Shown: positions 1,079 to 60,727, numbered from the whole stretch's first letter. The stretch is 63,861 bases of DNA, filler included, from Eubacteriales bacterium (GCA_045636665.1; 10 parts of 10 records of this genome joined end to end with filler, not necessarily neighbours in it); one strand, 5' to 3'. Notes: a model not told the origin generated them from the letters alone. A program made the numbers and translations.

Positions 1079-2917
1079 TTAATTACCTTCTTTTATAATT
1101 CTTACCTGCTTCGGTGAAAGCGTAAGTACGTTTTCAACGATTTCGTTTGACATCAAATCTCTGCCGTTTATGCCGTTTGCGGTATAGTCGTTATCCGACA
1201 TATTGGCAAGGATATGAAGCTTTTCCCTTCCGTTTGTGCGGACGATATATGCGACACCTTCGGACAGCACCCTTGCCGACAGCTTGGTCGATTTGAAAAG
1301 CGATTCGCCGTTGCGTACCGAATTGACCTTTTTGAAGAAGTCGATATTTTTATCGTCAAACGCGTACGATGGGAAGGTTCTGCGGTTGAAGGGGTCGTGA
1401 TAGCCCTCCATACCAAATTCGTCACCGTAATAAATGCAGGGCACTCCGGGTAGCGATGCAAGTAAAAGGTAGGCTTGGTTTAAAAGCTTTAATGCATAAG
1501 CCCTCTCGGATGCCGACATTTTGCGGTGCGCGAGAACTTCGTTATCCTCGCCCATATCCTCTGCTCCGCCCAAGACGGTGGAAATTCTTTCGGTATCGTG
1601 CGAGCCGAGGAAGTTCATAACGCTTGCCAATTTATGCGGAGGATAATTGCGATAAAGCGTGTTGACCGTTTCGACAAGAAAATCGGCATTGCCGTATTTA
1701 ACGAAATCGATCATCGCGTTGCGGATGGGATAATCGGTCACAGAATCGAGCTGACTTCCGCGGAAATAGCGTTTTCGCTCGTCATAGGCGATTTTGTTGG
1801 ACGCATCCTCCCAAACCTCGCCGATAATCAAAGCATCGCTCTTACAATCCTTTATCGCCTTGACGATTCTGTCGAGAAAATGCGATTCAAGCTCGTCGGC
1901 GACGTCAAGACGCCAGCCGTCGATACCCATTTGCATATATTTGGGTATTACCTGTTCGGTGATGAAACTGATATAGCTTTCGCATCTGACGGTGCGCGGA
2001 AGGTTTTTTATTCCCCACCAGCTTTCGTAGACGTTCGGAAATTCGTTGAAGGTGAACCATTCGTAATAGGGCGAATCCAATCCCTTGCTGCAAGCGCCTG
2101 TGCCGTATTTGTTATAGGCATCGAAATAGATGCTGTCGTTACCGACGTGGTTGAAAACGCCGTCGAGTATGACCTTAATATCCATTTTATGCGCCTGTTC
2201 GATAAGATGCGACAGCGCTTTGTCACCGCCGAAGCTTTTATCGACCGATAAAAAATCGGCAGTGTCGTATTTGTGGTTTGAATATGCTTCGAAAATGGGG
2301 TTTAAATAAATACAGCCGACACCCAATTCCTTTAAATAAGGAAGCTTATTTGCAACACCGTAAAGCGTACCGCCGAAATGGGTGTTGTTGGGGAAGGAAT
2401 CACCGCGTAGTAACGGATATTCGGGGATGCCGTTTTCCCAATCCTCGTTATAAACGGCGTCTTCCCTTCTTGTTGCATTTTCGCTCTTTGCGAAGCGGTC
2501 GGGGAAAATTTGATACATAACACGACCGTTAAGCCATTCGGGGGTGGCATATTTTTCGTCGTAAATTAAAATTTGCGTTTCGTTGACGAATCGCGTTTCG
2601 GCATAGCAATTGTTCGATTCGTCAAACGCGGTGTAATAGCGCGTTCCGTTTGCGATAAATTCGAAATGGCAGAAATAAAGTCCGTCATCGGTCGGAAAAT
2701 CGTTTTCCGTCAGCAAAACGGCGCAAGAAAAGGAGGAAGCTTGATTTGTTACTTCAACCTCCCTTTGAATAAAAACGCGTTCGTCATTGCCGAGGTAAAA
2801 CCAAGCGTTTTGGCACTGTATATCGGCAGAAAGCGTTATTGATATTTCGCTCCCCTTCGGAAACGTTTGGTTGCCCGAAGGGGAGTTTTTTGACGTGATT
2901 TTGAAATTCAGATTCAT
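1079..2917 (-). CDS. GH13 alpha-glucan hydrolase (neopullulanase/cyclomaltodextrinase/amylopullulanase-like)
   Basis: YQIFPDRF, NHKYDTAD, DGVFNH, DGWRLDVADE, GEVWE, SHDTER, IYYGDE, DPFNRR. Confidence 0.92.
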   Translation of the reverse strand: MNLNFKITSKNSPSGNQTFPKGSEISITLSADIQCQNAWFYLGNDERVFIQREVEVTNQASSFSCAVLLTENDFPTDDGLYFCHFEFIANGTRYYTAFDESNNCYAETRFVNETQILIYDEKYATPEWLNGRVMYQIFPDRFAKSENATRREDAVYNEDWENGIPEYPLLRGDSFPNNTHFGGTLYGVANKLPYLKELGVGCIYLNPIFEAYSNHKYDTADFLSVDKSFGGDKALSHLIEQAHKMDIKVILDGVFNHVGNDSIYFDAYNKYGTGACSKGLDSPYYEWFTFNEFPNVYESWWGIKNLPRTVRCESYISFITEQVIPKYMQMGIDGWRLDVADELESHFLDRIVKAIKDCKSDALIIGEVWEDASNKIAYDERKRYFRGSQLDSVTDYPIRNAMIDFVKYGNADFLVETVNTLYRNYPPHKLASVMNFLGSHDTERISTVLGGAEDMGEDNEVLAHRKMSASERAYALKLLNQAYLLLASLPGVPCIYYGDEFGMEGYHDPFNRRTFPSYAFDDKNIDFFKKVNSVRNGESLFKSTKLSARVLSEGVAYIVRTNGREKLHILANMSDNDYTANGINGRDLMSNEIVENVLTLSPKQVRIIKEGN

Positions 2918-5346
2918 TTATCAGTTTTAACCGGCTTGATATTCCAGATGTTTTCGGCATAGTCGCGAATCGAACGGTCTGCGGCGAAGAAGCCCGAATT
3001 TGCAATGTTTGCAAGAGCCTTCTTGTTCCACGTTGTTCGGTCGCTGTAATCGGCATAGACCTGCTTGCGCGCTTCCTGATAAAAATCGAAATCGGCAAGG
3101 CACATAAACGGGTCGCTCACGCCGAAGGAATAAAGCAGATAGTTTGCGATGTCGGCAAAGCTTCTGCCGTTAAATCCGGTTTGCAGATAGTCGACCGCCG
3201 CCTTAAGCTCGGGGTTGCGGTTATAATAATAGGAAGAAGCATAGCCCTTATCCCAAAGCTCTTGTACCTCGGGTGCGGTGTGACCGAAGATATAAATGTT
3301 ATCTCTGCCGACCTGCTCTGCCATTTCGACGTTTGCGCCGTCGAGAGTACCCAAGGTCAACGCGCCGTTTATCATAAACTTCATATTGCCCGTGCCCGAC
3401 GCTTCCTTACCTGCAAGCGATATTTGTTCGCTGATTTCCGCAGAGGGCATAAGGTGCTCGGCAAGGGTGACGTTGTAGTTTTCGAGGAATACAACGCGCA
3501 GCTTTTGACGGAGCACGGGGTCCTTTTCGACGTCAGCCGCGATATAGCAGATAAGACGGATGATATCCTTTGCGGTGTAATAGCCGGGCGCCGCCTTTGC
3601 GGCAAAGATGAAGGTTGTGGGCGTTACGTCGGCATTGGGGTTTTCCTTTAATTTAAGGTAGACCGTGATGATGTTAAGCGCGTTTAAGAGCTGACGCTTA
3701 TATTCGTGCAGACGCTTTGCCTGAACGTCGAAAACGGTATTGGGGTCGATGACGATTCCCTTTGTTTGCTTGATATAGTTTGCGAAATCGACCTTGTTTT
3801 GCTTCTTTATCGCATCGAGCTGAGAAAGCACCGACGAATCGTTTTGATATTGCATAAAGTCGGTCAATTTACTTGCATCTTTGCGGTAATCGGTTCCGAT
3901 GGTTTCGTCCAAAAGCTTTGCAAGCTTGGGGTTAGAATAGCAAAGCCATTTTCTGTGCGCGATACCGTTGGTTACGTTGGTGAAGCGTTCGGGATACATA
4001 TCGTTATAATCCTTGAAAACGCTTTCCTTTAATATATCCGAGTGCAAACGCGAAACGCCGTTGACGGTATGCGAGCCGACAACCGAAAGGTTTGCCATAC
4101 GCACACTGCCCTTGTTGAGTATCGACATACGCGAAACCTTATCCCAATCGCCCATATAAGCATTCCAAGCGTCCGCGCAGAAGCGACGGTTGATTTCCTT
4201 GATGATCGAATGGATTCTCGGAAGTCTGAGCGCAAAGAGATTTTCGTTCCAGCATTCAAGCGCTTCGGGAAGCACTGTGTGGTTGGTGTAGGAAATTGTA
4301 CGGGTTACGATGTCCCAAGCACGTTCCCACGAAACGTGGTGGTCATCGACAAGGATTCTCATCAATTCGGGGATACAGAGCGCAGGGTGGGTATCGTTGA
4401 TATGGATAGCCACCTTGTCGGGAAGGTTATCGAGCGATTTGAAGCGGAAAAGATGACGCCAAACGATATTTTGGAGCGATGCCGAAACGAGGAAATATTG
4501 CTGAGTAAGACGGAGCAATTTACCCTCGTAATGATTATCCGCGGGATAAAGCACCTTGGAAATGGTTTCGGCGATGGCGTTATCCTCGACCGCCTTAAGA
4601 TATTGTCCCTGCGAGAAGGCTTCCATATTGAAGTTGTTAATATCTCTTGCCTTCCAGAGTCTTAAGGTGTTGACGGCTTTTCCGTTGCCGCCCGAAATGA
4701 GGAGGTCATAGGGGACTGCTTCGACCTCGTCGTAATCCTCATAGATTATTTCGCAATGCGATTCCTTCCATTCCTCGCGGATTCTGCCGCCGAAGCGCAC
4801 CTTGCAGGCGCGGTCGTGACGGGGAACGAGCCAGTTTTGACCGTCGGGAAGCCAGATATCGGGAAGCTCGAGCTGTTCGCCCTCTACCAAGCGTTGCTTG
4901 AAAAGTCCGTATTCATAAAGAATACAGTAGCCTCTTGCAGGATAGTCCTGACTTGTGAGCGCGTCCATAAAGCAGCTTGCGAGTCTGCCAAGACCGCCGT
5001 TACCAAGACCGGGGTCGGTTTCGCATTCGTAAACGTCTTCGAGCTTAAAGCCCATTTTTTTAAGAACCTTGCGGTATTCATCCTCGAGTCCGAGGTTGCA
5101 GAGGTTCATTTTCAAGGATCTGCCGATGAGAAATTCCATACACATATAGTAGACCTGCTTTGCTTCGGTCTTTACTACCTCATCGGTAAATTCCTTGTTT
5201 CTCGTTGCGAGAACGTCGCGCACGGACAATACCGTGGCGTTGTAGATTTGGTTAAGGTCAGCGTCGCCTTCACTTATTCCGTAATAGCGCGAGAGCTTTT
5301 GATTAAGTGCCTCGCGGATTTCGTTCGCGACAGTTTTGCTTGCCAT
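2914..5346 (-). CDS. glgP: Glycogen/starch phosphorylase
   Basis: GLGNGGLGRLASCF, INDTHP, KRLHEYKRQLLN, PLP motif EASGTGNMKF; 810 aa. Confidence 0.97.
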   Translation of the reverse strand: MASKTVANEIREALNQKLSRYYGISEGDADLNQIYNATVLSVRDVLATRNKEFTDEVVKTEAKQVYYMCMEFLIGRSLKMNLCNLGLEDEYRKVLKKMGFKLEDVYECETDPGLGNGGLGRLASCFMDALTSQDYPARGYCILYEYGLFKQRLVEGEQLELPDIWLPDGQNWLVPRHDRACKVRFGGRIREEWKESHCEIIYEDYDEVEAVPYDLLISGGNGKAVNTLRLWKARDINNFNMEAFSQGQYLKAVEDNAIAETISKVLYPADNHYEGKLLRLTQQYFLVSASLQNIVWRHLFRFKSLDNLPDKVAIHINDTHPALCIPELMRILVDDHHVSWERAWDIVTRTISYTNHTVLPEALECWNENLFALRLPRIHSIIKEINRRFCADAWNAYMGDWDKVSRMSILNKGSVRMANLSVVGSHTVNGVSRLHSDILKESVFKDYNDMYPERFTNVTNGIAHRKWLCYSNPKLAKLLDETIGTDYRKDASKLTDFMQYQNDSSVLSQLDAIKKQNKVDFANYIKQTKGIVIDPNTVFDVQAKRLHEYKRQLLNALNIITVYLKLKENPNADVTPTTFIFAAKAAPGYYTAKDIIRLICYIAADVEKDPVLRQKLRVVFLENYNVTLAEHLMPSAEISEQISLAGKEASGTGNMKFMINGALTLGTLDGANVEMAEQVGRDNIYIFGHTAPEVQELWDKGYASSYYYNRNPELKAAVDYLQTGFNGRSFADIANYLLYSFGVSDPFMCLADFDFYQEARKQVYADYSDRTTWNKKALANIANSGFFAADRSIRDYAENIWNIKPVKTDK

Positions 5347-5370
5347 GCAGTTAGTTTCCTTTTATATTCG

Positions 5371-6795
5371 TTAAAATTGATTGTAAAGTTCTTTATAGGA
5401 GATTGCGCTTTGCTTCCAAGAGAAGTCGACGCGCATAACCTTTTTTTGAAGCTTGTTGAAGCCTTCGCGGTCGTTTTTGAACAAATCGATAGCGCGGTTT
5501 ACCGAGCCGAGCATTTCATAAGCGCTGTATGCCGCAAAGGTAAAGCCGTTGCCGCCGCCTTCGCAACCGATATCCTTGATGCTGTCGTAAAGACCGCCGG
5601 TTTCGTGGATGACGGGAATCGCGCCGTAGCGTGAGCATATCATTTGCGCAAGACCGCAGGGCTCGCTTCTTGAAGGCATCAAGAAGACGTCTGCCGCAGA
5701 ATAGATGCGCTTTGAAAGGTCACGGTTATAGGTGATAAGCGTTTTGCACTTTTCGGGGAAACGCGCGGCGAGATTTTCGAAATAAGACTCATAGCTCTTA
5801 TCGCCCATACCCAAAACGACAAGCTGAACGTCATCGCGCAGTAAATCGTCACCTGCAAGCACGACAAGGTCGAGTCCCTTGTGACTTACAAGGCGCGAAA
5901 TTACGGCGATAAGCGGAACGTCGCGTTCGGGCAGACCGAGCATTCTTTGAAGTCCCGATTTGCAGATTGCCTTGCCATCGGTATTGCGCGAATTGAAGTT
6001 GGCGAATATTTCGGTATCCTTACTTGGGTTGTAATAATCCTTATCGATGCCGTTTAAAATGCCCGAAAGCTTAAACGAGAACATATTGAGCACGTTATCG
6101 AGCCCGTGCGAGAATTTGGGAGTCAAAATTTCCTTTGCGTAGGTGGGGCTTACGGTCGTCACCTTATCGGCGCAGACGATAGCGCCCTTTAACAGATTTA
6201 TACAGCCGTCGTATTCGACTATTTCCTTATCAGATTCCATAAGTCCGAATACGTCGCCGAGGATGGCGAAATCGTAAATGCCTTGGTATTGGATATTGTG
6301 GATGGTGAAAACGGCTTTTGTGTTCGCAAAGCGTTCATCGATTTTTGCATAGCATTGCTTTAAATAGATAACGCTTAAAGCGGCGTGCCAATCGTGCGCG
6401 TGAAGAATATCGGGTATAAAATCAATATCGGGCAAAATTTCCATCGCCGCGCGACAGAAGAACGCAAATCTTTCGGCATCGTCAAATTCGCCGTAAAGAG
6501 CCGCGCGCTTGAAATAAAATTCGTTATCAAGGAAATAATAGGTCACGCCCTTTTGCTTGTACTCGAAAATGCCGCAATATTGGTTACGCCACGAAAGCTT
6601 GACGGTTTTCGAGCCGATAAACTTCATCTTTTTGCGGTATTTTTCGGTCACTTGGGCATAAAGCGGCAATATTACGCGGATATCGTCCTCCTTTTGCTCG
6701 GAAAGAGCCGTAGGTAACGAGCCGATAACATCACCAAGTCCGCCCGAGGATGCAAAGGGCAATGCCTCACCTGCTATATAAAGTATTTTTTTCAT
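5371..6795 (-). CDS. glgA: Glycogen synthase
   Basis: GGLGDV, HAHDWH, FTIHN, NGID, PSRSEPCGLAQM, TGGLYDS. Confidence 0.96.
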   Translation of the reverse strand: MKKILYIAGEALPFASSGGLGDVIGSLPTALSEQKEDDIRVILPLYAQVTEKYRKKMKFIGSKTVKLSWRNQYCGIFEYKQKGVTYYFLDNEFYFKRAALYGEFDDAERFAFFCRAAMEILPDIDFIPDILHAHDWHAALSVIYLKQCYAKIDERFANTKAVFTIHNIQYQGIYDFAILGDVFGLMESDKEIVEYDGCINLLKGAIVCADKVTTVSPTYAKEILTPKFSHGLDNVLNMFSFKLSGILNGIDKDYYNPSKDTEIFANFNSRNTDGKAICKSGLQRMLGLPERDVPLIAVISRLVSHKGLDLVVLAGDDLLRDDVQLVVLGMGDKSYESYFENLAARFPEKCKTLITYNRDLSKRIYSAADVFLMPSRSEPCGLAQMICSRYGAIPVIHETGGLYDSIKDIGCEGGGNGFTFAAYSAYEMLGSVNRAIDLFKNDREGFNKLQKKVMRVDFSWKQSAISYKELYNQF

Positions 6796-6810
6796 AATTG
6801 TTATTCCTAT

Positions 6811-6908
6811 TTCTTAAAAATTAGTTCCGATTTTCTTTAAAATCAGTTCCGAGAGAAAAACTTTTTGGAAAAAGCTTTTCTCTCGGGCTCTCTTTTCAAA
6901 AACTTTTC
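6811..6908. repeat. REP-like palindrome with adjacent 20-bp tandem duplication in the glgA 5' region
   Basis: Inverted repeat CCGAGAGAAAAACTTTTT-GG-AAAAAGCTTTTCTCTCGG (6849-6886). Imperfect direct repeat TTCTTAAAAATTAGTTCCGA (6811-6830) / TTCTTTAAAATCAGTTCCGA (6833-6852). Confidence 0.55.
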
Positions 6909-6995
6909 AAACAAATAAAATCAAAAACAAAATACGAAGTATTTTTATAATAAAACCCCATAAAAATCCGCGACATGCGCGTGGATTTTTATACC

Positions 6996-7095
6996 NNNNN
7001 NNNNNNNNNNNNNNNNNNNNNNNNNNNNNNNNNNNNNNNTTAATTAATTAANNNNNNNNNNNNNNNNNNNNNNNNNNNNNNNNNNNNNNNNNNNN
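6996..7095. other. Artificial contig linker (N-run with TTAATTAATTAA); eight more copies at 18053, 24752, 34129, 37300, 41406, 52851, 55309, 60628
   Basis: Identical 100-nt N44-TTAATTAATTAA-N44 blocks with stops in all six frames; flanking genes are truncated. Confidence 0.99.
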
Positions 7096-7097
7096 CG

Positions 7098-9443
7098 CCC
7101 GAATTTGGAGAAAAAACGGGAACCGGCGGTCAAGGTGCGGAATTTACTGTTGCATCGGACGAAAAGATTATCGCTGTCGGCAATAAAAATTCGGATATCC
7201 CTTCCGACGGTTTTGTTTTGAGCTTCGGACCTGCAAAGGCAAATCAGCTTCCCGAAATCAGTGTAGGCGATTACGTTTATTTCGATAAGGATTATAACTG
7301 CGTAACTGTTGTTTCGGAAAACTATTCTCCTTTTGGCGAAAGCGTTCTTGCTTACGATGCAATCAATGCAACGCGCGCCGAAAATAAGCTCATCATTTAC
7401 CGCGGCAGAGAAGAAACCAAAACAAACACTTGGGGAGTTGAAGCGGTTGTTGATGCGAACGGAATCATCGTTTCAGTCGGCGGAAACAACAATAAAATTC
7501 CTCAAGGCGGTTTTGTTATATCGGGCGTAGGCAACAAAAAACAACCGATAACCGATTCTTGTGTGTTGGGCTATTCCGCGATTCTTGATGAAAAAGCAAA
7601 AACCATAACCGTTTCCTACACAAAAGAAAACGCATACAACAGCTACGAGCTCAAATGGAAGGAATTTGAATCCCAAATCAATTCGGCTACCTTGAGCTTT
7701 GCGGATATCGACTATAAAATGGTCGATGAATCTGCTAAAAAGCTTAAATCGATTTTACAAACAATCAAGAGCAATCTTGAAAATGATAAGGTGCACGACT
7801 TTATAAGAAACGGATATCTTTTTGATATCGAAGCTGAAAACCTTAAAACTGCGCTTGTGCCTTATATTCCGGTTGAAACAAGAACCGTTTGGCTTCGTAT
7901 TCCCACAAACGCAAGTGCTTCTACAGTTAAAAAGACGGTAAACGATATTTATGAAATGGGCTTTAACTCGGTTTGTATTGAGGTTCTTTTTGATTCTACA
8001 ATGATAATGCCGATGCCTGAAGACAGCTTGTTCGAACAAAATCCCGTCTTTAAAGGGCAAGATATGCTTAAGCTCTATACCGATGAATTTCACGCGGTCG
8101 GTATTGAGGTTCACGCTTGGGTATCTTGCTACAGAGTCGGACATGACGGCTCGGCAAACGTAGGCGTTTCGGTTGGCAAGAAAAAGCCCGAATGGTTGAA
8201 TATCGACCAAAACGGAAAAGAATCGGTAACAAACGAATACGGAAATGCGTTTTTTCTTAACCCCGCACTTCCCGAGGTACAGGAATTTTTGTTAAAAACC
8301 TATCGCTATATCCTTGAAAATTATGAAATTGACGGATTCCAGCTTGATTACGTTCGTTATCCCGAAAACTCTACGGTGAACTACGGATACGACGAATATA
8401 CAAAAGCGCAGTTCAAAGAAAAATACGGTATCGAAAAAGTTCCCACAAGCTCATCACAAGCGGGTTGGTCGGATTGGTGTGAATTCCGAGCTTCCTTTGT
8501 TACCGACCTCGTAAGAAAAACGGGAGAGCTTATTAAAGAAATCCGTCCCGACGTTCTTTTCTCTTGTGACGTAGCGCCCGGATACGAATCGACCAAGACC
8601 AAAATGTGCCAAGATACCGAAACTTGGCTTAAGGAAGGCCTTGTCGACGTAATATATCCTATGGCATACGGAACGACAGATGCGGTAATCAAGTGGACCG
8701 ATAATACAGTTGACCTTTCGGGCGACGGCATTCAAACCGTAATCGGACTTCGCGATAACGGTCCTGAAACTTACCGTGAACAAATTATCGCCGCGCGTAA
8801 ATGCGGCGCTGACGGAACAGCGTTTTTCTCGTACAGTCAATACGTTAGCGGAAGCTATAAGGAATACATCAAAAATTCGGTATTTTCAAAAGAAGCTATT
8901 TGTCCGTCTTATAATGCAAAGGCGGCTGTAATTGCACAGCTTGACCATATTAAAGATACAATCGTTTCGAGAATCTCAAGCGTTGCGAAAACCGAAGCTT
9001 CTTCTGCCGACGTTGATGCGCTTAAGGTGTATGCCGAAAAGCTCGGCGCGTTCACAAAGCAGCTTGCCGATAAAAAACTTTCGGAAGTTGAAAACGAATT
9101 GAACGGTCTTGTTGCAGAGGGAAACACGCTTGCGGAAAAATACGTTTCCGAAACCGATATCGTATCTGATAATATCAGCAAATATCTTTTGTCTTCTCTT
9201 AAAATCGCCGAAAAAGCGGCTATTAATTCCTTGGATGATGAAAAGAATTCATACAAAGAATCATTAAAGCCCGAAACAAATGATTCGTCCGAGATTACCG
9301 ACGAAAGTGTTTCTACCGATGAGAGCGATGGTGTTGAAGACACATCTTCCACCGTTATAACGGTAGTTTCCGTTGCGGCAGTCGTTGTTTTGCTTGGGGT
9401 TTTGGTGTTTTTCTTGCTCAAAAGCAGAAAAAACAAGACCTGA
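7098..9443 (+). CDS. Membrane-anchored glycoside hydrolase-like family 10 (GHL10/DUF187) protein, 5'-truncated
   Basis: Frame is open to the contig edge. ETRTVW, EVHAW, FLNPALPEVQ, IDGFQLDYVRYP, WxxFR, VIYPMAY; C-terminal TM helix plus KSRKNKT tail. Confidence 0.8.
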   Translation, partial: PEFGEKTGTGGQGAEFTVASDEKIIAVGNKNSDIPSDGFVLSFGPAKANQLPEISVGDYVYFDKDYNCVTVVSENYSPFGESVLAYDAINATRAENKLIIYRGREETKTNTWGVEAVVDANGIIVSVGGNNNKIPQGGFVISGVGNKKQPITDSCVLGYSAILDEKAKTITVSYTKENAYNSYELKWKEFESQINSATLSFADIDYKMVDESAKKLKSILQTIKSNLENDKVHDFIRNGYLFDIEAENLKTALVPYIPVETRTVWLRIPTNASASTVKKTVNDIYEMGFNSVCIEVLFDSTMIMPMPEDSLFEQNPVFKGQDMLKLYTDEFHAVGIEVHAWVSCYRVGHDGSANVGVSVGKKKPEWLNIDQNGKESVTNEYGNAFFLNPALPEVQEFLLKTYRYILENYEIDGFQLDYVRYPENSTVNYGYDEYTKAQFKEKYGIEKVPTSSSQAGWSDWCEFRASFVTDLVRKTGELIKEIRPDVLFSCDVAPGYESTKTKMCQDTETWLKEGLVDVIYPMAYGTTDAVIKWTDNTVDLSGDGIQTVIGLRDNGPETYREQIIAARKCGADGTAFFSYSQYVSGSYKEYIKNSVFSKEAICPSYNAKAAVIAQLDHIKDTIVSRISSVAKTEASSADVDALKVYAEKLGAFTKQLADKKLSEVENELNGLVAEGNTLAEKYVSETDIVSDNISKYLLSSLKIAEKAAINSLDDEKNSYKESLKPETNDSSEITDESVSTDESDGVEDTSSTVITVVSVAAVVVLLGVLVFFLLKSRKNKT

Positions 9444-11833: not shown

Positions 11834-12922
11834 ATGGCTGAAAAACTCAGAATTGGTATCATCGGTTGCGGTGGTATCGCAAACGGAAAGCATCTTCCCG
11901 CGCTTAAAGCACAACCTGACGTTGAAATGGTTTGGTTCTGCGATATCGTTCGCGAAAGAGCTGAAACCGCGGCAAAGAATTACGGCACACCCGATGCAAA
12001 GGTTTGCACCGACTATCGCGAAGTGCTTGAGGATAAAACTGTTGATGTAGTACACGTGCTTACTCCCAACCGTTCTCACAGCTTTATCACCGTTGATGCT
12101 CTTGAAGCAGGCAAACACGTTATGTGCGAAAAGCCTATGGCTATCAACGCGGCTGAAGCAAAGAAGATGGTTGATGCCGCAAAGAGAACGGGTAAAAAGC
12201 TTACTATCGGTTATCAAAACCGTCACCGTCCCGATTCACTTTACGTTAAGACAGAAGCTGAACAAGGCACCTTTGGTGATATTTATTATGCAAAGGCTAC
12301 TGCAATCAGAAGAAGAGCGGTTCCCACTTGGGGCGTATTTATGAACGAATACGAGCAAGGCGGAGGTCCTCTTATCGATATCGGCACCCACGCGCTTGAC
12401 CTTACTATGTGGTGTATGGATAATTACAAGCCCAAATATTGCGTAGGTACTACCTATCACAAGCTTGGCGAAAAATTCCCCTCCGGTAACGCTTGGGGCG
12501 ATTGGAAGCCCGGTGAACTCACCGTAGAGGATTCCGCGTTCGGATTCATCGTTATGGAAAACGGCGCTACCATCATTCTCGAATCGAGCTGGGCGCTTAA
12601 TATGCTTGATCCCCGCGAAGCGATAACGACTCTTTGCGGTACCGAAGGCGGCGTTGATATGCTCGACGGCGTTCGTATCAACGGTATTCGTAACGGCAGA
12701 CCTTATGTTCTTAAGCCCGGTCTTGGTGCAGGCGGCGTTGACTTCTATGATGGCTCGGGCGATGAAACTCCCGCAAACCGCGAAGCAAGACTTTGGGTTG
12801 AAGCAATCCGTAACGACACCGAACCCTTCGTAACTCCCGAACAGGCATATGCGGTAAGCTGCATTCTCGAAGGCATCTATACCTCGGCGAAGACCGGCGA
12901 ACCCTATTACTTTAACAAATAA
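11834..12922 (+). CDS. Gfo/Idh/MocA family NAD-dependent oxidoreductase
   Basis: GIIGCGGIA, CEKPMA, RRRAVPTWG, GGGPLIDIGTH. Confidence 0.93.
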   Translation: MAEKLRIGIIGCGGIANGKHLPALKAQPDVEMVWFCDIVRERAETAAKNYGTPDAKVCTDYREVLEDKTVDVVHVLTPNRSHSFITVDALEAGKHVMCEKPMAINAAEAKKMVDAAKRTGKKLTIGYQNRHRPDSLYVKTEAEQGTFGDIYYAKATAIRRRAVPTWGVFMNEYEQGGGPLIDIGTHALDLTMWCMDNYKPKYCVGTTYHKLGEKFPSGNAWGDWKPGELTVEDSAFGFIVMENGATIILESSWALNMLDPREAITTLCGTEGGVDMLDGVRINGIRNGRPYVLKPGLGAGGVDFYDGSGDETPANREARLWVEAIRNDTEPFVTPEQAYAVSCILEGIYTSAKTGEPYYFNK

Positions 12923-54584: not shown

Positions 54585-55208
54585 TTACTTAATCTCTTCA
54601 ATCAATTTGCATACAACGGGCGCAAGGGCATTTGCAATTAACTTTTTGCCCGCGGTATCGGGATGTACGCCGTCGGGAGATAATTCAACGTTAGGAACGC
54701 CATTAACGTTTGCTTCGACAAACATACCGTCAAGAGGAATAAATGCATCGGCATATTGCATTGCAAGCTGACGAACAACGTCAATCTTCTCGTTAAGGTC
54801 TGCACGCATATTGTCCTTATCCATGTTATAAAGCAAAAACGGTTCCATAATAACGATTTTTGCATTCGTTTCGGATTTAATGCGTTTTAAAACAGTTTCG
54901 TAATTTGAGCGGAAATATTCAATCGTTGTTTCAAGATTTATCATATATTTGTGCCAAGTATCGTTAATGCCGATAAGAATTGTTACGATATCGGGCTGAA
55001 GATTGATAAGATCGTTTTCAACGCGCGCGAGAAGATTTTCGGTACGGTTGCCGCTAATACCGCGATTAAAAAATTCAATATCCATATCGGGAAAAGCATT
55101 TTTTATCGCCTCTACAGTATAAACAACATATCCTTGGCCCAAATTGTTGGGATCATCATAAACTCGTTGACAATCGGTTACGCTGTCACCTTGAAATAAA
55201 ATTCGCAT
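54585..55208 (-). CDS. SGNH/GDSL hydrolase
   Basis: FQGDSVT, NRGISG, GIND, DGVHP. Confidence 0.92.
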   Translation of the reverse strand: MRILFQGDSVTDCQRVYDDPNNLGQGYVVYTVEAIKNAFPDMDIEFFNRGISGNRTENLLARVENDLINLQPDIVTILIGINDTWHKYMINLETTIEYFRSNYETVLKRIKSETNAKIVIMEPFLLYNMDKDNMRADLNEKIDVVRQLAMQYADAFIPLDGMFVEANVNGVPNVELSPDGVHPDTAGKKLIANALAPVVCKLIEEIK

Positions 55209-55308: not shown

Positions 55309-55408
55309 NNNNNNNNNNNNNNNNNNNNNNNNNNNNNNNNNNNNNNNNNNNNTTAATTAATTAANNNNNNNNNNNNNNNNNNNNNNNNNNNNNNNNNNNN
55401 NNNNNNNN

Positions 55409-55464
55409 TGTTGACAAATCAACAAGTTTGTGTTATAGTCTATGCTTGTTGAGAAATCAACAAG
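55409..55464 (+). promoter_or_regulatory. Sigma-A promoter with two palindromic operators (probable MarR sites)
   Basis: TTGACA(55411)-17nt-TATAGT(55434); TGTTGA-CAAA-TCAACA (55409-24) over the -35, and CTTGTTGA-GAAA-TCAACAAG (55445-64) at the start site. Confidence 0.8.
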
Positions 55465-55542
55465 TTCTGTTTGGACAACAAATTTAAAAATAAGTTGGAT
55501 TTTCGAAGCAACAACATAAAGAAAAAAAGGAGTTAACTATCA

Positions 55543-57246
55543 ATGAATAGCGAACAGTTACATCCTAAAAGAGAATTTAAAAGTATTCGTCATATAGTAG
55601 AATATGCCGCAAAGACCTATGGCAACAGCGTTGCATTTTCTTATCGTTTGAAGCCCAATGACAAGGAAAAGGTCACCGTCAGTTACGTTGAGTTCCGCGA
55701 TGACGTAAGAGCTCTTGCAAGCGAAATGCTTTCTCGTAAAATGGAGGGAAAGCATATTGTCGCAATCGGCAAAATGTCTTATGATTTTGTAGTTACATAT
55801 TACGCCACCCTTCTTATCGGCGCGGTTCTTGTTCCGCTTGACCGAGATTGGAGCGCTTCGGAGTTGGCAAACACCGCAAAAAGCGCTGATATCGATTATC
55901 TTTTCTGTGACGAAGACCTTTTGGAAAAGAGCGAGGAAATCCAACGTGTTTGCGATTTAAAAGCTCCGACTACCTATTTCGGTGCAACGGGTGAACAAAG
56001 TCTTTCGACTATGATAGCTCAAGGCCGCCGTAAATATTTAGAGGACAGAAGACCGTATTTCGCCGTGGACTTTGACAATCGCAAGCTTTCGCTTCTTGTT
56101 TATACCTCGGGAACTACCGGAAAAGGCAAGGGCGTTATGCTTTGCACCGATTCGATTATCCGAAATATGTCCGACGCTTTGCCTTATATCGATTTTGCAA
56201 AGAAGACGGTTTCGGTTTTGCCGCCGCACCATACTTACGGTTCTACCGTTATGCTCATAGGACACGTAATGATCGGAACCGAGGTATATATATCCAGCGG
56301 TATACGTTACGTGCAAAAGGAGCTTATGATCGAAAAGCCCGGCCATCTTGTTTTGGTTCCTCTTTATCTTGAAACCTTTTATCGAAAAATACAAGCAAAT
56401 ATCAAGAACCAAGGCAAGGATGCAATAGTAAGCAAGATGATAAAGCTTGCAAAGGTTACCCGAGCCGCAAGCTTTGGACTTGTTGACTTAAGAGAAAAGC
56501 TCTTTTCTCAGATAAGAAACGCTTTTGGCGGAAGAATCAAAACCATTGTAACGGGCGGCGCGCCGATCAATCAAGAAATCGTTTCGTTTTTCGAGGGCTT
56601 GGGAATTTCGATTTTGAACGGATACGGCATAACCGAGTGCTCGCCGTTGATTTCGGTTAATCGAAGTCTTAACGTCGTGAAGGGCAGTGTCGGTACCGTT
56701 CTCGATATGGATGAGGTCAAAATCAGCAAGCCGAACGAGGCAGGCGAAGGAGAAATTTGCGTTAAAGGCCCGAACGTTATGCTCGGTTACTATAAAGACG
56801 AAGCGGCAACCCGCGATGTGTTCGACAGCGAGGGCTTCTTCAAAACGGGAGATTACGGAAAGCTTACCAAGGACCGAATCCTTTATATTACCGGCAGAAA
56901 AAAGAATTTGATAATTCTTTCCAACGGCAAAAACGTATATCCCGAGGAAATAGAAAACGAATTGATTTCCATTCCCGGTGTGCAGGATATTATCGTCTAT
57001 GAAGGACAAAGCCGCAGAGGTATAGAGCACAACGCCATTGTTGCCGAGATTTTCCCCGACGGCGAGTATATTTCCAAGAACGAAATAACCGACGTCAAGG
57101 CATATTTGCAGCCGTATATCGAAAAATATAACAGAGCCGCAGTTCCGTACAAGAAGATTAACGTGGTGAGGATTCGTACAGAAGACTTCCCCAAAAACAC
57201 CTTGCGAAAAATTATGCGTTATAAGCTCGATATGAGCATCGATTAA
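55543..57246 (+). CDS. AMP-binding long-chain acyl-CoA synthetase
   Basis: YTSGTTGKGKG, LPPHHTY, NGYGITECSP, TGDYG, GRKKNLI..NGKNVYPEE. Confidence 0.9.
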   Translation: MNSEQLHPKREFKSIRHIVEYAAKTYGNSVAFSYRLKPNDKEKVTVSYVEFRDDVRALASEMLSRKMEGKHIVAIGKMSYDFVVTYYATLLIGAVLVPLDRDWSASELANTAKSADIDYLFCDEDLLEKSEEIQRVCDLKAPTTYFGATGEQSLSTMIAQGRRKYLEDRRPYFAVDFDNRKLSLLVYTSGTTGKGKGVMLCTDSIIRNMSDALPYIDFAKKTVSVLPPHHTYGSTVMLIGHVMIGTEVYISSGIRYVQKELMIEKPGHLVLVPLYLETFYRKIQANIKNQGKDAIVSKMIKLAKVTRAASFGLVDLREKLFSQIRNAFGGRIKTIVTGGAPINQEIVSFFEGLGISILNGYGITECSPLISVNRSLNVVKGSVGTVLDMDEVKISKPNEAGEGEICVKGPNVMLGYYKDEAATRDVFDSEGFFKTGDYGKLTKDRILYITGRKKNLIILSNGKNVYPEEIENELISIPGVQDIIVYEGQSRRGIEHNAIVAEIFPDGEYISKNEITDVKAYLQPYIEKYNRAAVPYKKINVVRIRTEDFPKNTLRKIMRYKLDMSID

Positions 57247-57263
57247 AACAGAAAGGCAAGCTT

Positions 57264-57716
57264 ATGCAAGAAAGATTTGAAACGTTTACCGTTCTAATTA
57301 ACAGAATCAGCCGAAATATTCGTAAGATTAAAAACCAAGAAATGGCAGAATACAATTTGAGAAGCGCTCACGTTTCCTGCCTTTATTATCTTTACTCTGC
57401 CAAGGGCGCAACCGCAACAGACCTTTGCGAGCGTTGCGAAGAAGACAAGGCGACAATTTCGCGTGCGCTCGATTATCTTGAAACAAACGGCTTCTTGACC
57501 TGCGAGTCAAAGTGCGCAAAGAGATACAAAAGTCCGCTTGTGCTTACCGACAAGGGAAACGAGGCAGGCAAAAAGATTTCGGACAAGATAAACGGAGTTC
57601 TTGATGCAATCAGCGATGGGCTTACCGAGGAAGAAAGAGTGGCGTTTTACCGCAGTCTTTCCATCATAAGCGATAGCTTGGACACCGTTTCCAAGAATAG
57701 CGAAAACAAGGAGTAA
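57264..57716 (+). CDS. MarR family transcriptional regulator
   Basis: 150 aa, DKATISRALDYLE..G, LTDKG, GLTEEER. Confidence 0.9.
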   Translation: MQERFETFTVLINRISRNIRKIKNQEMAEYNLRSAHVSCLYYLYSAKGATATDLCERCEEDKATISRALDYLETNGFLTCESKCAKRYKSPLVLTDKGNEAGKKISDKINGVLDAISDGLTEEERVAFYRSLSIISDSLDTVSKNSENKE

Positions 57717-57718
57717 TT

Positions 57719-58927
57719 ATGTTTTTTCCAAAAGCAGTATTTTGCCGTGTTTTTCAAGCCGCATTCAGAATGGCTATGCCCTTTCTTCCGTACAGAGAAC
57801 CGAAAATCATTAATTCCTGCGCAGGAATTAAAGAGGTATTAGCCAAAGAAAACGCAACACACGTGCTTGTCGTTACAGATAAAGGCATCGTTAACAACGG
57901 ACTGTTAAATCCCGTTGAGGAGGTCTTGAAAAAGTGCAATATTCCTTATTGCGTTTACGATGACACGCTTCCGAACCCCACCGTTAAAAACGTAGAGGAT
58001 GCATTAAAGGTGTATCACGGCAACAGCTGTAACGCTATTATTGCTATCGGCGGCGGTTCTGCAATGGATTGCGCAAAAGCGGTCGGCGTTCGAGTTGTAT
58101 ATCCGAAAAGAACGGTCAATCAGTTGGGGGGCAAGTTAAAGGCGTGGCGCAAGCTTCCAACGCTGATTGCTATTCCCACCACCGCAGGAACGGGAAGCGA
58201 AACCACTCTTGCGGCGATGATTACCGATTCCGACACACACCGCAAGTATGCAATTATGAGCTTTCCCTTGATTCCCCATTATGCGGTTTTGGATGCATCC
58301 TTGACATATTCGTTGCCGCCGCACTTGACCGCAAGTACGGGAATGGATGCGCTTACTCATGCGGTTGAGGCATATATCGGCCGTTCGACAACACAAGAAA
58401 CAAGAGCGCTTGCATTGGAGGCGACGAAGCTTGTGTTTGAAAACGTTCACGTTGCATACTCCGACGGAAAAAATCATAAGGCAAGAGAAAATATGCTTCA
58501 CGCGGCATATAAGGCAGGCATAGCTTTTTCAAAATCGTACGTTGGATATATCCACGCGCTTGCTCATTCGCTCGGCGGCCTTTACGGCACTCCCCACGGT
58601 CTTGCCAATACGGTTATTATGCCGTATGTGCTCGAGGCTTACGGCGAAAGCGTGTATAAAAAGCTTTACGAGCTCGGAGTTGCTTCGGGCGCTTGTAACG
58701 AAACCGATTCGCACAGAATCGGCGCCGAGAAATTTATAAGCGCGATAAAGAAGCTCAACGCGGAGATGGGCATCCCCGAAAAATTAAAGGGAATAAAAAA
58801 AGAAGATATTCCGCATTTGTCAAAGCACGCCGAAAAGGAAGCAAATCCGCTTTATCCTGTGCCGAAGCTTATGACACGAAAGGAACTCGAAAACTTCTAT
58901 TACAAATTCGCAGATTGGAGCAACTAA
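57719..58927 (+). CDS. Iron-containing alcohol dehydrogenase
   Basis: GGGSAMDCAK, PTTAGTGSE, DALTHAVE, HALAH, HGLAN. Confidence 0.93.
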   Translation: MFFPKAVFCRVFQAAFRMAMPFLPYREPKIINSCAGIKEVLAKENATHVLVVTDKGIVNNGLLNPVEEVLKKCNIPYCVYDDTLPNPTVKNVEDALKVYHGNSCNAIIAIGGGSAMDCAKAVGVRVVYPKRTVNQLGGKLKAWRKLPTLIAIPTTAGTGSETTLAAMITDSDTHRKYAIMSFPLIPHYAVLDASLTYSLPPHLTASTGMDALTHAVEAYIGRSTTQETRALALEATKLVFENVHVAYSDGKNHKARENMLHAAYKAGIAFSKSYVGYIHALAHSLGGLYGTPHGLANTVIMPYVLEAYGESVYKKLYELGVASGACNETDSHRIGAEKFISAIKKLNAEMGIPEKLKGIKKEDIPHLSKHAEKEANPLYPVPKLMTRKELENFYYKFADWSN

Positions 58928-58928
58928 A

Positions 58929-60311
58929 ATGACAAGCGAACAGATTTCTAACCTGCTTGAGGCTCAGCGAGCATATTATAAAAGCGGCGCAACCGTTTCG
59001 GTTAAGTTTCGTATCGAACAGCTTAAAAAGCTTTACGCAACCGTCAAGAAATACGAATCCGAGGTTAACGACGCGTTAAAATCCGACCTCGGCAAAAGCC
59101 ATTACGAGGCTTTTATGTGCGAAAGCGGTCTTGTGCTTTCCGAAATTTCTTATATGATACGGCATACAAAGCGATTTGCAAAAAGGAAAACCGTTGCCAC
59201 TCCGATAACCAACTTTGCATCACACAGCTTTAAGCAACCGATTCCTTACGGTAACACGCTCATTATGAGTCCGTGGAATTATCCTTTTCTCTTAACGCTC
59301 GACCCTTTGGCAGACGCCATTGCCGCAGGTAATACCGCTATTGTAAAACCGAGCGCATATTCTCCCGCGACAAGTAAAATAATAGAAAAAATCATAACCG
59401 AATGCTTTGCTCCAGAATACGTTGCGGTTGTAACTGGCGGCAGAGCCGAAAATTCCGCACTGTTAGAGCAGAAATTTGATTTTATATTCTTTACCGGAAG
59501 CCAAGCCGTTGGCAAAGAGGTGCTTCGCCACGCGGCGGTGCATTTAACCCCGACCGTTTTGGAGCTTGGCGGCAAAAGCCCTTGTATTGTCGATAAAAGC
59601 GCAAATATCAAGCTCGCGGCGAAGCGTATCGTGTTCGGCAAATATCTTAACTGCGGACAGACCTGCGTTGCTCCCGACTATATTCTCTGCGATAAAAGCA
59701 TCAAGGATCAGTTTGTCGCCGAGGTTGTAAGGCAGATTAAAAAGCAGTATGGCGAAAATCCGCTTGAAAACAAAGATTACGGGAAAATTATCAACGAGAA
59801 GCATTTCAACCGTATTTGTTCCTTGATTGATAAAAACAAGGTTGTCATCGGCGGCGAGGTCAATGCCGATACCTGCCAAATCGCGCCGACCGTTATGGAT
59901 AACGTAACCGAAGGCGATGCGGTTATGGGCGAAGAAATCTTCCGCCCCATTATGCCGATTCTTACCTTTGATGATTTCGATTCGCTTGTTGATGAGCTCA
60001 AAGGAAAGGATAAGCCCTTGGCTTTGTATATTTTTTCAAGCGACAAGAAGCATATTAAGCGCGTCACAACCGAGCTTTCTTACGGCGGCGGCTGTATTAA
60101 CGACGTGGTTGTACATCTTGCAACAAGCGAAATGGGCTTTGGCGGCGTTGGTGAAAGCGGTATGGGCTCGTATCACGGTAAAGACGGTTTTGCCGCATTT
60201 TCGCATTATAAATCGGTTATGGACAAGAAAACGTGGCTGGATTTGCCGATGCGTTATCAATCGTACAAGAGCAAGCTTTATGAAAAGCTTTTACACATAT
60301 TCTTGAGGTAA
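58929..60311 (+). CDS. Aldehyde dehydrogenase (ALDH3/YwdH-like)
   Basis: PWNYP, FTGS, LELGGKSP, GQTCVAPDY, KPLALY, GFGGVGESGMGSYHG; EEIFRP instead of the usual EEIFGP. Confidence 0.92.
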   Translation: MTSEQISNLLEAQRAYYKSGATVSVKFRIEQLKKLYATVKKYESEVNDALKSDLGKSHYEAFMCESGLVLSEISYMIRHTKRFAKRKTVATPITNFASHSFKQPIPYGNTLIMSPWNYPFLLTLDPLADAIAAGNTAIVKPSAYSPATSKIIEKIITECFAPEYVAVVTGGRAENSALLEQKFDFIFFTGSQAVGKEVLRHAAVHLTPTVLELGGKSPCIVDKSANIKLAAKRIVFGKYLNCGQTCVAPDYILCDKSIKDQFVAEVVRQIKKQYGENPLENKDYGKIINEKHFNRICSLIDKNKVVIGGEVNADTCQIAPTVMDNVTEGDAVMGEEIFRPIMPILTFDDFDSLVDELKGKDKPLALYIFSSDKKHIKRVTTELSYGGGCINDVVVHLATSEMGFGGVGESGMGSYHGKDGFAAFSHYKSVMDKKTWLDLPMRYQSYKSKLYEKLLHIFLR

Positions 60312-60316
60312 ACAAT

Positions 60317-60627
60317 ATGAAAAATAAAATTATGCTTGCGGTAAACACCGTAATTATTTCTTCAATCCTCATACTGAATTATTTTTATCAAAGCAACGGC
60401 TTTGATTTCACGTTAAAGTGTATTTGCAGCGGCAGCTTTGCTCTGCTCGGTATCATAAACCTTTGTTATGCTGTAGCTTCCAAGCAAAGCAACAAGAGAT
60501 TTTACGTCGGGATGGCTTTCGGATTGGTCTTGGCGTTCCTTGGCGACGTTTTGATCGGTTACGATTTTATCATCGGCGCGGCAACCTTTGCGCTCGGTCA
60601 CGTTTGCTTTGTTATCGCCTATTGCTT
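60317..60627 (+). CDS. YhhN/lysoplasmalogenase-like membrane protein, 3'-truncated
   Basis: K in second TM, GLVLAFLGDVLI..FIIGAATFALGHVCFVIAY (GD...F..G...F..GH pattern). Confidence 0.72.
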
Positions 60628-60727
60628 NNNNNNNNNNNNNNNNNNNNNNNNNNNNNNNNNNNNNNNNNNNNTTAATTAATTAANNNNNNNNNNNNNNNNN
60701 NNNNNNNNNNNNNNNNNNNNNNNNNNN

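Follow-up and report, generated by a model that had tools for sequence, protein, structure and literature searches.

The contig at positions 55409-60627 of the window, by which we mean the whole 63,861-nucleotide stretch (1-63861) analysed here from the Eubacteriales bacterium genome GCA_045636665.1, carries five genes that probably form a MarR-repressed operon for taking lysoplasmalogens apart, in which the fatty aldehyde released would be oxidised or reduced and the fatty acid activated. The genes encode, in order, a fatty-acid ligase of the ANL family, a MarR-family regulator, an iron-type alcohol dehydrogenase (Fe-ADH), a class-3 aldehyde dehydrogenase (ALDH) and a YhhN-family membrane protein; all five open reading frames (ORFs) lie on the plus strand behind one promoter, separated by gaps of 17, 2, 1 and 5 nt, and the contig ends inside the last of them. 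The initial annotation of this DNA had described the same gene order, gaps, contig end and promoter with twin operators, all of which are confirmed by the coordinates, while Pfam agrees with each of its five family assignments (Table 1). It had also proposed a regulated route leading from lysoplasmalogen through aldehyde and acid to acyl-CoA, with a branch to the alcohol, and this proposal is now supported by the conservation of the cluster, by natural fusion proteins and by the resemblance of the ALDH to human fatty aldehyde dehydrogenase (FALDH).

The association of YhhN with these enzymes extends across many species. A scan of one genome per species, with an alignment of eight YhhN proteins as query, returned 70 loci, all but three weak matches coming from uncultured gut or rumen bacteria; those three (L089-L091; tblastn E 2e-4 to 6e-4), from two Sphingomonadales and one Clostridia metagenome-assembled genome (MAG), were dropped, leaving 67 loci for counting. 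Where genes on the same strand and no more than 4 kb from YhhN were considered (tblastn E <= 1e-8, at least 40% query coverage), ALDH was found beside YhhN in 35 of the 67 loci, Fe-ADH in 28, MarR in 22 and the ligase in four, and one or other dehydrogenase was present in 37. In 46 loci the sequence extends for 3 kb or more on both sides of YhhN, and of these 26 had ALDH and 24 had Fe-ADH. Other neighbouring families recur in seven loci at most, as judged by all-against-all clustering of 796 neighbouring ORFs. The linkage between YhhN and the dehydrogenases persists as YhhN identity falls from 100% to 33%, and the order of genes varies, for instance to YhhN-MarR-ALDH (L059) or YhhN-FeADH-ALDH (L087). 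In a quick maximum-likelihood tree of 60 YhhN sequences, from which seven loci with short or interrupted joined matches were left out (L036, L047, L050, L060, L066, L081 and L086), the ALDH-linked members fall into several clades, and the well-supported branches force at least five changes of state, that is, gains or losses. The conservation on which the initial annotation had made its reading depend is evident in these counts and in the changing gene order.

The strongest evidence that YhhN, Fe-ADH and ALDH share one substrate stream comes from proteins in which they are naturally joined, and these bear out the earlier suggestion that the three belong to a single route. At L087 a single protein of 1134 aa comprises YhhN (residues 71-251), Fe-ADH (301-662) and ALDH (674-1105), and L085 encodes a 633-aa protein combining YhhN and Fe-ADH. 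In a search of 5.8 billion proteins, limited to lengths of 623-1985 aa and grouped in clusters at 90% identity, the triple fusion was represented by seven clusters (1092-1126 aa) and the double fusion of YhhN and Fe-ADH by two (633-634 aa); a further YhhN-Fe-ADH fusion, in a 639-aa frame, was found at L121 in an independent class-wide sample. Assembly error was considered as the origin of the fusions and rejected, since the nine clusters come from several sources and contain up to 127 member sequences each. The predicted complex of YhhN with Fe-ADH scored 0.01 against a mark of 0.32, a result that counts neither way.

The fusions also dispose of most of the case for an ordinary operon, acting on short-chain or aromatic alcohols and aldehydes, that happens to lie beside an unrelated membrane protein. 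Such an operon would account for the best named relatives of the Fe-ADH, which are lactaldehyde, propanediol and ethanol enzymes, and for the best NCBIfam match of the ALDH, which is benzaldehyde dehydrogenase MdlD (430 bits, under the cut-off of 550). However, nine clusters of fusion proteins go beyond chance adjacency, and the linkage survives great divergence of YhhN despite the changing gene order, while the loci share an operator and in places include, inside the operon, a gene of the DegV family, to which the fatty-acid-binding FakB proteins belong; we regard this explanation as very improbable and close to refuted.

The likely activity of YhhN is indicated by its relatives. All three characterised members of the family (Pfam PF07947), from mammals, Legionella and Mycobacterium, are reported to be specific lysoplasmalogenases, and two of them come from organisms without plasmalogen synthesis (PMC9052158). 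Our AlphaFold2 (AF2) model of the complete 227-aa protein, built from 34 sequences, has a mean pLDDT of 95.1, a pTM of 0.91 and eight helices (residues 2-26, 31-54, 60-80, 84-105, 110-129, 138-165, 168-193 and 197-226). On our reading of the model, the alternating loops rich in Lys and Arg would place both termini in the cytoplasm, and a cytoplasmic C-terminus fits the C-terminal fusion to NAD(P)-dependent enzymes. Alignments were made of 34 of the 67 YhhN sequences, 17 Fe-ADH and 24 ALDH sequences; in the first of these K34, D77, H95, K157, S183, D184 and Y207 are invariant. For the mammalian enzymes TMEM86A and TMEM86B a set of residues has been listed (K43/53, G81/87, D82/88, H104/108, G182/175, S189/182, D190/183 and Y213/206), whose exchange for alanine is reported to lower activity in all cases but G81/G87 (PMC11994398). 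Seven of these eight are present in YhhN as K34, G76-D77, H95, S183-D184 and Y207, matched by order and spacing and not by direct alignment, and G76 is the only one of the seven that is not invariant. Homology and gene context together speak for a lysoplasmalogenase (EC 3.3.2.2 / 3.3.2.5). No solved structure of the family was found, since a profile search gave 0 matches at E <= 1 and a fold search none at E <= 0.001; the latter returned only weak resemblance to seven-helix receptors and rhodopsin. At L017 (4964-6058, minus strand, the same place as L056) there is a longer YhhN of 365 aa, with a C-terminal extension of approximately 140 aa that matches no Pfam family.

The yhhN gene is truncated at the end of a contig, and its missing part was recovered. 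Positions 55409-60627 are the entire contig C102 (5219 bp), so that the end is real, and the source genome (G000) is a MAG of 1.82 Mb in 139 contigs and 80% complete. A whole-genome Pfam search located the rest of the gene on the minus strand of contig C2, at its end (11945-12383; 70.9 bits, profile positions 50-181); over its final 66 nt C102 matches C2 exactly, and the frame read across this overlap encodes 227 aa. In a sister species (G003) the whole unit is intact on a public MAG contig of 33.8 kb (locus L022), with 93-99% protein identity; there the ligase comes first, then MarR, Fe-ADH, ALDH and a YhhN of 227 aa, and beyond them lie the same NIF3-like and BMP/ABC genes that C2 carries. 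We considered the possibility that C102 and C2 are not contiguous and rejected it, given that the sister species carries the full arrangement, including those downstream genes of C2, on one contig. The earlier identification of the last gene as YhhN is upheld by the recovered part and by the full-length orthologue. Terminator-like hairpins flank the unit in the sister species, one at 2758-2784 and the other, just past YhhN, at 8551-8574, and the next gene beyond the unit has a promoter-like site of its own.

The outermost 50 nt of C2 differ from C102 and consist of a short repeat that is also found on eight other contigs, mostly at their ends; copies include C75 103-152 and the ends of C9, C30, C95, C105 and C117. 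This repeat is probably what broke the assembly between C102 and C2. It may represent one end of a mobile or repeated element, and in some of the population yhhN may be interrupted by an insertion near codon 82. The genes on C75 are only a formate-tetrahydrofolate ligase and a phosphatase-family gene, with no transposase.

The second enzyme in the proposed route, the ALDH, has 6k0z (5e-130), human FALDH 4qgk (7e-119) and ALDH3A1 as its best solved relatives, and the second place of FALDH agrees with the appeal of the initial annotation to ALDH3-type enzymes, which oxidise fatty aldehydes. Its residues N117, E212, C246 and E336 align, at an offset of +5, with the FALDH active-site residues N112, E207, C241 and E331 (PMC4109017) and are invariant in the aligned sequences. 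Since the active site of FALDH is kept, the enzyme should be of the hydrolytic, irreversible type and not CoA-acylating. FALDH possesses a gatekeeper helix (445-460), removal of which is reported to lower efficiency on C12 and C16 aldehydes but not on C8 (PMC4109017). The tail of our ALDH is conserved at 433-460, with D432, K433, K434, D438, P440, M441, R442 and Y443 invariant, and a helix is predicted at 449-459, where the gatekeeper helix of FALDH sits; a transmembrane anchor is absent. In the Fe-ADH, which has both Pfam domains of the iron-containing (group III) alcohol dehydrogenases, the invariant residues are G111-S114 (the GGGS nucleotide motif), D210, H214, H279, H283 and H293, of which we take the Asp and His residues to be the metal ligands. 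It also has a conserved N-terminal extension, CRxFQ...PxLPYREP (C9, R10, Q13, F16, P21, L23-R26 and P28), which follows directly after YhhN in the fusions.

The character of the ALDH also speaks against a pathway running in the biosynthetic direction, in which an acid would be activated and reduced to aldehyde or alcohol, and YhhN would build an ether or acetal lipid, so supplying the unexplained 'aldehyde route' to bacterial plasmalogens. An enzyme with the full hydrolytic active site of class 3 would, by irreversible oxidation, destroy the supposed precursor, and yet no partner accompanies YhhN more constantly than ALDH, which also occurs in fusion with it. The position of the ligase as first gene of the operon would suit biosynthesis, but a ligase is present in only four of the 67 loci. 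Enol-ether hydrolysis, moreover, is energetically downhill. Two further facts remain in favour of synthesis: homologues of LuxE and LuxC, which make fatty aldehydes, lie directly upstream of YhhN in some species, and whole-cell work is reported to show that long-chain aldehydes, not alcohols, enter bacterial plasmalogens (PMC9702350). On balance we think this alternative improbable.

The loci with LuxE and LuxC (an acyl-protein synthetase and an acyl-CoA reductase) belong to six related gut species (L073, L074, L076, L077 and L081, and partly L078 and L082), with coordinates of 6388-8588 in L073 and 5494-8600 in L074; this is a clade of Oscillospiraceae from human and animal guts whose YhhN is shorter.

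For the fate of the acid in the degradative route that we favour, the operon offers the ligase, which is clearly of ANL type and would be an acyl-CoA or acyl-ACP synthetase; its best NCBIfam match is a long-chain-fatty-acid-CoA ligase (207 bits against a cut-off of 476), and its solved relatives are weak and mixed. In other loci DegV would occupy the ligase's logical place, the handling of free fatty acid: it lies between Fe-ADH and ALDH in L026, L031, L033 and L035 and directly behind the operator in L043, and scores 64.9 bits with the FakB1 model, for which the cut-off is 350. The acyl-CoA synthetase of the initially proposed route needs qualifying: the ligase is an addition particular to a lineage, and DegV/FakB stands in for it in four other loci. 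L043 is unusual in that positions 1593-8543 contain the operator, DegV, a gene for a phospholipase or cardiolipin synthase of the PLD type, ABC transporter genes and then a 477-aa frame joining an ABC ATPase to a YhhN part that has no counterpart of the first 50 residues; it may be a rearranged or decaying locus.

Other genes occur within or beside the operon in particular lineages. A gene for a choloylglycine hydrolase or Ntn-type linear-amide hydrolase is found inside it in L050 (4136-5374) and L063 (6761-7975), and this amidase may set free a fatty acid from N-acyl lipids. In L065 (852-1487) and L053 (6651-7337) a GDSL-type lipase/acylhydrolase, which could be the maker of the lysolipid, lies just upstream of YhhN. 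The DegV, amidase, GDSL and LuxCE genes in these loci all belong to long-chain lipid metabolism. Genes of the Old-Yellow-Enzyme or 2,4-dienoyl-CoA-reductase type and for aconitase-X follow YhhN in L026 (3553-6919), L028 (8683-12069) and L042 (4606-8036).

Co-regulation of the unit is indicated by its operators. Twin palindromes cover the -35 hexamer and the region after the -10 hexamer, where transcription would start. In the sister species the promoter (2887-2915) matches 11 of 12 bases, has the TG extension and is the best promoter match in the region, and operator 1, cut by the contig start in the source genome, is a perfect palindrome of 14+4+14 with the -35 hexamer inside its left arm. 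Operator 2 is the only perfect copy in the 1.8-Mb source genome. When CTTGTTGA-N4-TCAACAAG was sought with two mismatches at most, there were 31 matches in the 873 kb of the 67 loci, against an expectation of 0.23 and counts of 0, 0, 0, 1 and 0 in five shuffles. The operator is present in 18 of the 67 loci, in 13 of them twinned, and always precedes the first gene of the unit, be it the ligase, MarR, Fe-ADH, ALDH, YhhN or DegV. Such an arrangement is typically seen where a MarR-type repressor blocks the promoter from which it is itself expressed, and the MarR protein is the presumed binder of the twin operators.

Table 1. Features of the operon at 55409-60627 and of the intact yhhN gene in the sister species
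Feature	Location	Strand	Size	Sequence or supporting match
Operator 1	55409-55426	+		(C)TTGTTGA-N4-TCAACAAG, cut by contig start
Promoter, sigma-70 type	55411-55439	+		TTGACA-17 nt-TATAGT, TG before -10; read directly
Operator 2	55445-55464	+		CTTGTTGA-GAAA-TCAACAAG, just downstream of -10
ANL-family fatty-acid ligase	55543-57246	+	567 aa	Pfam AMP-binding 192 bits
MarR-family regulator	57264-57716	+	150 aa	Pfam MarR_2 31.8 bits (cut-off 27), MarR 27.0 bits, above cut-off
Iron-type alcohol dehydrogenase (Fe-ADH)	57719-58927	+	402 aa	Pfam Fe-ADH 152.8 bits, ADH_Fe_C 162.4 bits
Class-3 aldehyde dehydrogenase (ALDH)	58929-60311	+	460 aa	Pfam Aldedh 291 bits
YhhN, partial	60317-60627	+	first 103 codons of 227-aa protein	Pfam YhhN 29.1 bits (cut-off 25.6), profile positions 7-70
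YhhN, intact orthologue	L022:7793-8473		227 aa	Pfam 82.7 bits, profile positions 7-181 of 182

The window itself consists of ten contigs joined by runs of N around TTAATTAATTAA (linkers, for example, at 55309-55408 and 60628-60727), and genes to the left and right of the operon within it are consequently not its physical neighbours. One of these, a GDSL-type lipase/acylhydrolase (54588-55208, minus strand, Pfam 83 bits), ends the adjoining contig and shows no physical link to the operon. A search of sequencing runs matched four DNA runs, all from gut metagenomes and with shares of at most 0.10, and no RNA run was among the matches.

In proposing a mechanism for this operon, we need to account for a putative membrane hydrolase that is repeatedly linked or fused to two enzymes of aldehyde metabolism. 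We propose a model with four steps. First, the eight-helix YhhN protein would hydrolyse the sn-1 vinyl ether of a lysoplasmalogen within the membrane and release a long-chain fatty aldehyde. Second, the class-3 ALDH would oxidise this aldehyde irreversibly to the fatty acid. Third, the Fe-ADH would reduce a part of the aldehyde to the fatty alcohol. Acting together, the two dehydrogenases would clear a reactive aldehyde by dismutation, leaving the balance of NAD(P)H unchanged or nearly so; that an NAD(P)+-reducing enzyme is fused one-to-one to an NAD(P)H-oxidising enzyme suggests that the cofactor is recycled in this way, which would suit an anaerobe. Fourth, the ligase would activate the fatty acid as a thioester for membrane-lipid synthesis, a step that would fall to DegV/FakB in other species. 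MarR would sit on the two palindromes, over the -35 hexamer and the transcription start, and presumably be released by a lipid signal. The sequences establish the gene content and its conservation, the fusions, the operator and the conserved residues; from homology and gene context we infer every substrate, the direction of the Fe-ADH, the dismutation, the acceptor used by the ligase and the signal sensed by MarR.

A number of observations weigh against this model. With regard to YhhN, the correspondence with TMEM86 is one that we infer from the order and spacing of motifs rather than from direct alignment, and the equivalent of G182, seven positions ahead of S-D, has become Ala in the operon's own YhhN lineage but is Gly in more distant members. 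The predicted C-terminal helix of the ALDH has a pLDDT of only 52-60 in the monomer model; the nearest solved relatives of the Fe-ADH, namely Zymomonas ADH2 and the 1,3-propanediol and lactaldehyde reductases, act on short substrates; and the NCBIfam models for Fe-ADH, ALDH and ligase all fall below their cut-offs. LuxE and LuxC are known makers of aldehydes, and their presence beside YhhN is unexplained unless LuxC runs oxidatively. The operon contains no gene for making the lysolipid (an sn-2 deacylase). With regard to linkage, 30 of the 67 loci are without either dehydrogenase within 4 kb and 28 have none of the four other operon genes, some of the loci being incomplete, and in G007, G008, G012 and G013, four genomes belonging to the genus, the ALDH (62-76% identity) occurs by itself, its surroundings lacking MarR, Fe-ADH, YhhN and the operator. 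An even sample of 400 Clostridia genomes had a YhhN-family gene in 47 (35 of 219 genera), and ALDH or Fe-ADH adjoined it in three of the 30 best loci (within 1.5 kb on either side); so low a figure indicates that the coupling is a trait of this YhhN subfamily and not of the whole family. Finally, among 25 genomes of the genus, YhhN is present in eight and a gene resembling the plasmalogen synthase PlsA in seven, with both only in the source genome and its sister species, and two nearly complete genomes, G011 (98%) and G013 (96%), have YhhN without a PlsA-like gene.

These last observations mean that the co-occurrence of YhhN with plsA, which the initial annotation had put forward as a check, was not seen in the genus. 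The source genome itself has, on contig C24 (1095-5408, L094), a 1437-aa gene with two BcrAD_BadFG domains and a DUF2229 domain (300.6 bits); single-gene forms of plsA are reported to measure 4248-4920 bp (PMC12838417), and this match to the architecture and size of single-gene PlsA makes plasmalogen synthesis by the organism probable. A search of this genome for the HGD-D family (PF06050) found no member, and DUF2229 is a useful marker for PlsA. Own and scavenged ether lipids had both been envisaged as substrates; the absence of co-occurrence, together with YhhN in near-complete genomes that lack PlsA, argues against a role limited to the cell's own lipids and favours scavenging.

The same distribution is consistent with a different substrate altogether. 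The operon could serve to detoxify lipid aldehydes with YhhN acting on another lipid, either an enol-ether or acetal (the glycerol acetals of clostridial plasmalogens are an example) or a lysolipid that is not an ether. This would explain why YhhN is retained without a PlsA-like gene and why, elsewhere in the genus, the ALDH is also at work where YhhN is absent; the YhhN subfamily has no more than the family motifs in common with the characterised enzymes, and NCBIfam holds no named model for it. Against this, the residues required for lysoplasmalogenase activity are, by order and spacing, largely kept, the three YhhN proteins that have been tested all proved specific for lysoplasmalogens even though two came from organisms that do not make plasmalogens (PMC9052158), and the gut and rumen are described as rich in plasmalogen-bearing anaerobes (PMC9702350). 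We consider another substrate unlikely, while giving it more weight than any other alternative.

If lysoplasmalogens are the substrate, the economy of the genus provides a motive for salvage. FabF/B-type ketoacyl synthase is the core elongating enzyme of type II fatty-acid synthesis. It was the only gene of fatty-acid synthesis for which we searched, and all 14 control genomes scored; it was not found in the source genome, was found in two of 24 relatives in the genus and was absent from eight of the nine relatives whose completeness is 95% or more. Members of the genus look incapable of producing fatty acids themselves and dependent on an outside supply, from which there would be a clear benefit in salvage. 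The source genome has PlsX and seven long ANL ligases, and DegV was not found in it at 80% completeness. With FabF/B mostly missing and many carriers of YhhN having no plasmalogen synthase, the purpose of the operon is most likely the scavenging and detoxification of ether lysolipids that come from neighbours, from the host or from feed; a role in turning over lipids of the cell itself is less likely. A more far-reaching version, which we put forward only tentatively, is that gut Clostridia apparently without fatty-acid synthesis of their own strip the alkenyl chain from such lipids by means of a membrane-anchored machine of three enzymes, a single fused protein in some species, in which a cofactor-recycling dismutase pair disposes of the aldehyde at no redox cost and the acid passes to membrane synthesis.

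The proposed route has a close analogue in animals. In mammals the lysoplasmalogenases TMEM86A and TMEM86B are reported to release a fatty aldehyde that is then oxidised by ALDH3A2, that is, FALDH (PMC9471318, PMC3137066). Both systems combine a YhhN-family protein with a class-3 ALDH in the same order of reactions, and the catalytic residues are kept in the ALDH and, by order and spacing, largely so in YhhN. They differ in that the bacterial genes are regulated together and in some species make a single polypeptide, in that Fe-ADH is a constant third partner, in that the ALDH has no transmembrane anchor, in that activation of the fatty acid is built in, and in that the organism is an anaerobe. 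Among bacteria, Lpg1991 of Legionella pneumophila and Rv1401 of Mycobacterium tuberculosis belong to the same family, share the eight-helix membrane fold and likewise occur in bacteria that need not make plasmalogens. These enzymes are proposed to dispose of toxic lysolipids of exogenous origin and to put the products to use; in the M. tuberculosis paper, 'operon', 'neighbor' and 'aldehyde dehydrogenase' have 0 occurrences each (PMC9052158). Unlike the gut anaerobes considered here, the bacteria concerned are aerobic intracellular pathogens acting on host lipids.

The pairing of the two dehydrogenases is reminiscent of AdhE and of the Eut and Pdu systems, in which an ALDH and an iron-type ADH are likewise physically joined or co-encoded and share a cofactor pool, so that a toxic aldehyde is handled without draining NAD(H). 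However, the ALDH of AdhE is CoA-acylating and lies N-terminal to the ADH, whereas here it is a hydrolytic class-3 enzyme on the C-terminal side, and the substrate would be made by a fused membrane hydrolase. The last step resembles the uptake of exogenous fatty acids in Firmicutes, where FakA with FakB (a DegV protein) or acyl-ACP and acyl-CoA synthetases serve; there is a DegV or an ANL ligase where free acid needs activation, and PlsX as well. The likeness has its limits, in that DegV falls well short of the FakB1 model and none was found in the source genome.

No operon or fusion linking YhhN to aldehyde-handling enzymes was found in the literature searched, which comprised titles and the beginnings of abstracts, with subscription journals mostly outside its range, and within that scope the initial statement that no described operon of this kind was known holds good. 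What would be new is the regulated operon and the fusion protein in gut anaerobes; the animal pathway and the bacterial enzyme family were known. Anaerobic bacteria are major makers of plasmalogens, and the breakdown and recycling of these lipids in microbial communities has not been described; a 2022 review of bacterial plasmalogens does not use the words 'lysoplasmalogen' or 'degradation' (PMC9702350). The operon and the fusions provide a concrete gene set for addressing this, consisting of a putative hydrolase, a pair of enzymes that handle aldehydes, a step in which the fatty acid would be activated and a regulator whose operator is defined, all of which can be tested. Should the more far-reaching version of our model hold, bacteria would have here their first pathway dedicated to plasmalogen catabolism, and the gut a new route by which lipids are cross-fed. 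If confirmed, the pathway would explain the presence of YhhN in bacteria that do not synthesise plasmalogens, and show how bacteria with apparently no capacity for fatty-acid synthesis obtain lipids from those around them, while the enzyme, sensor and promoter would become tools with which plasmalogen turnover in the gut could be measured or altered.

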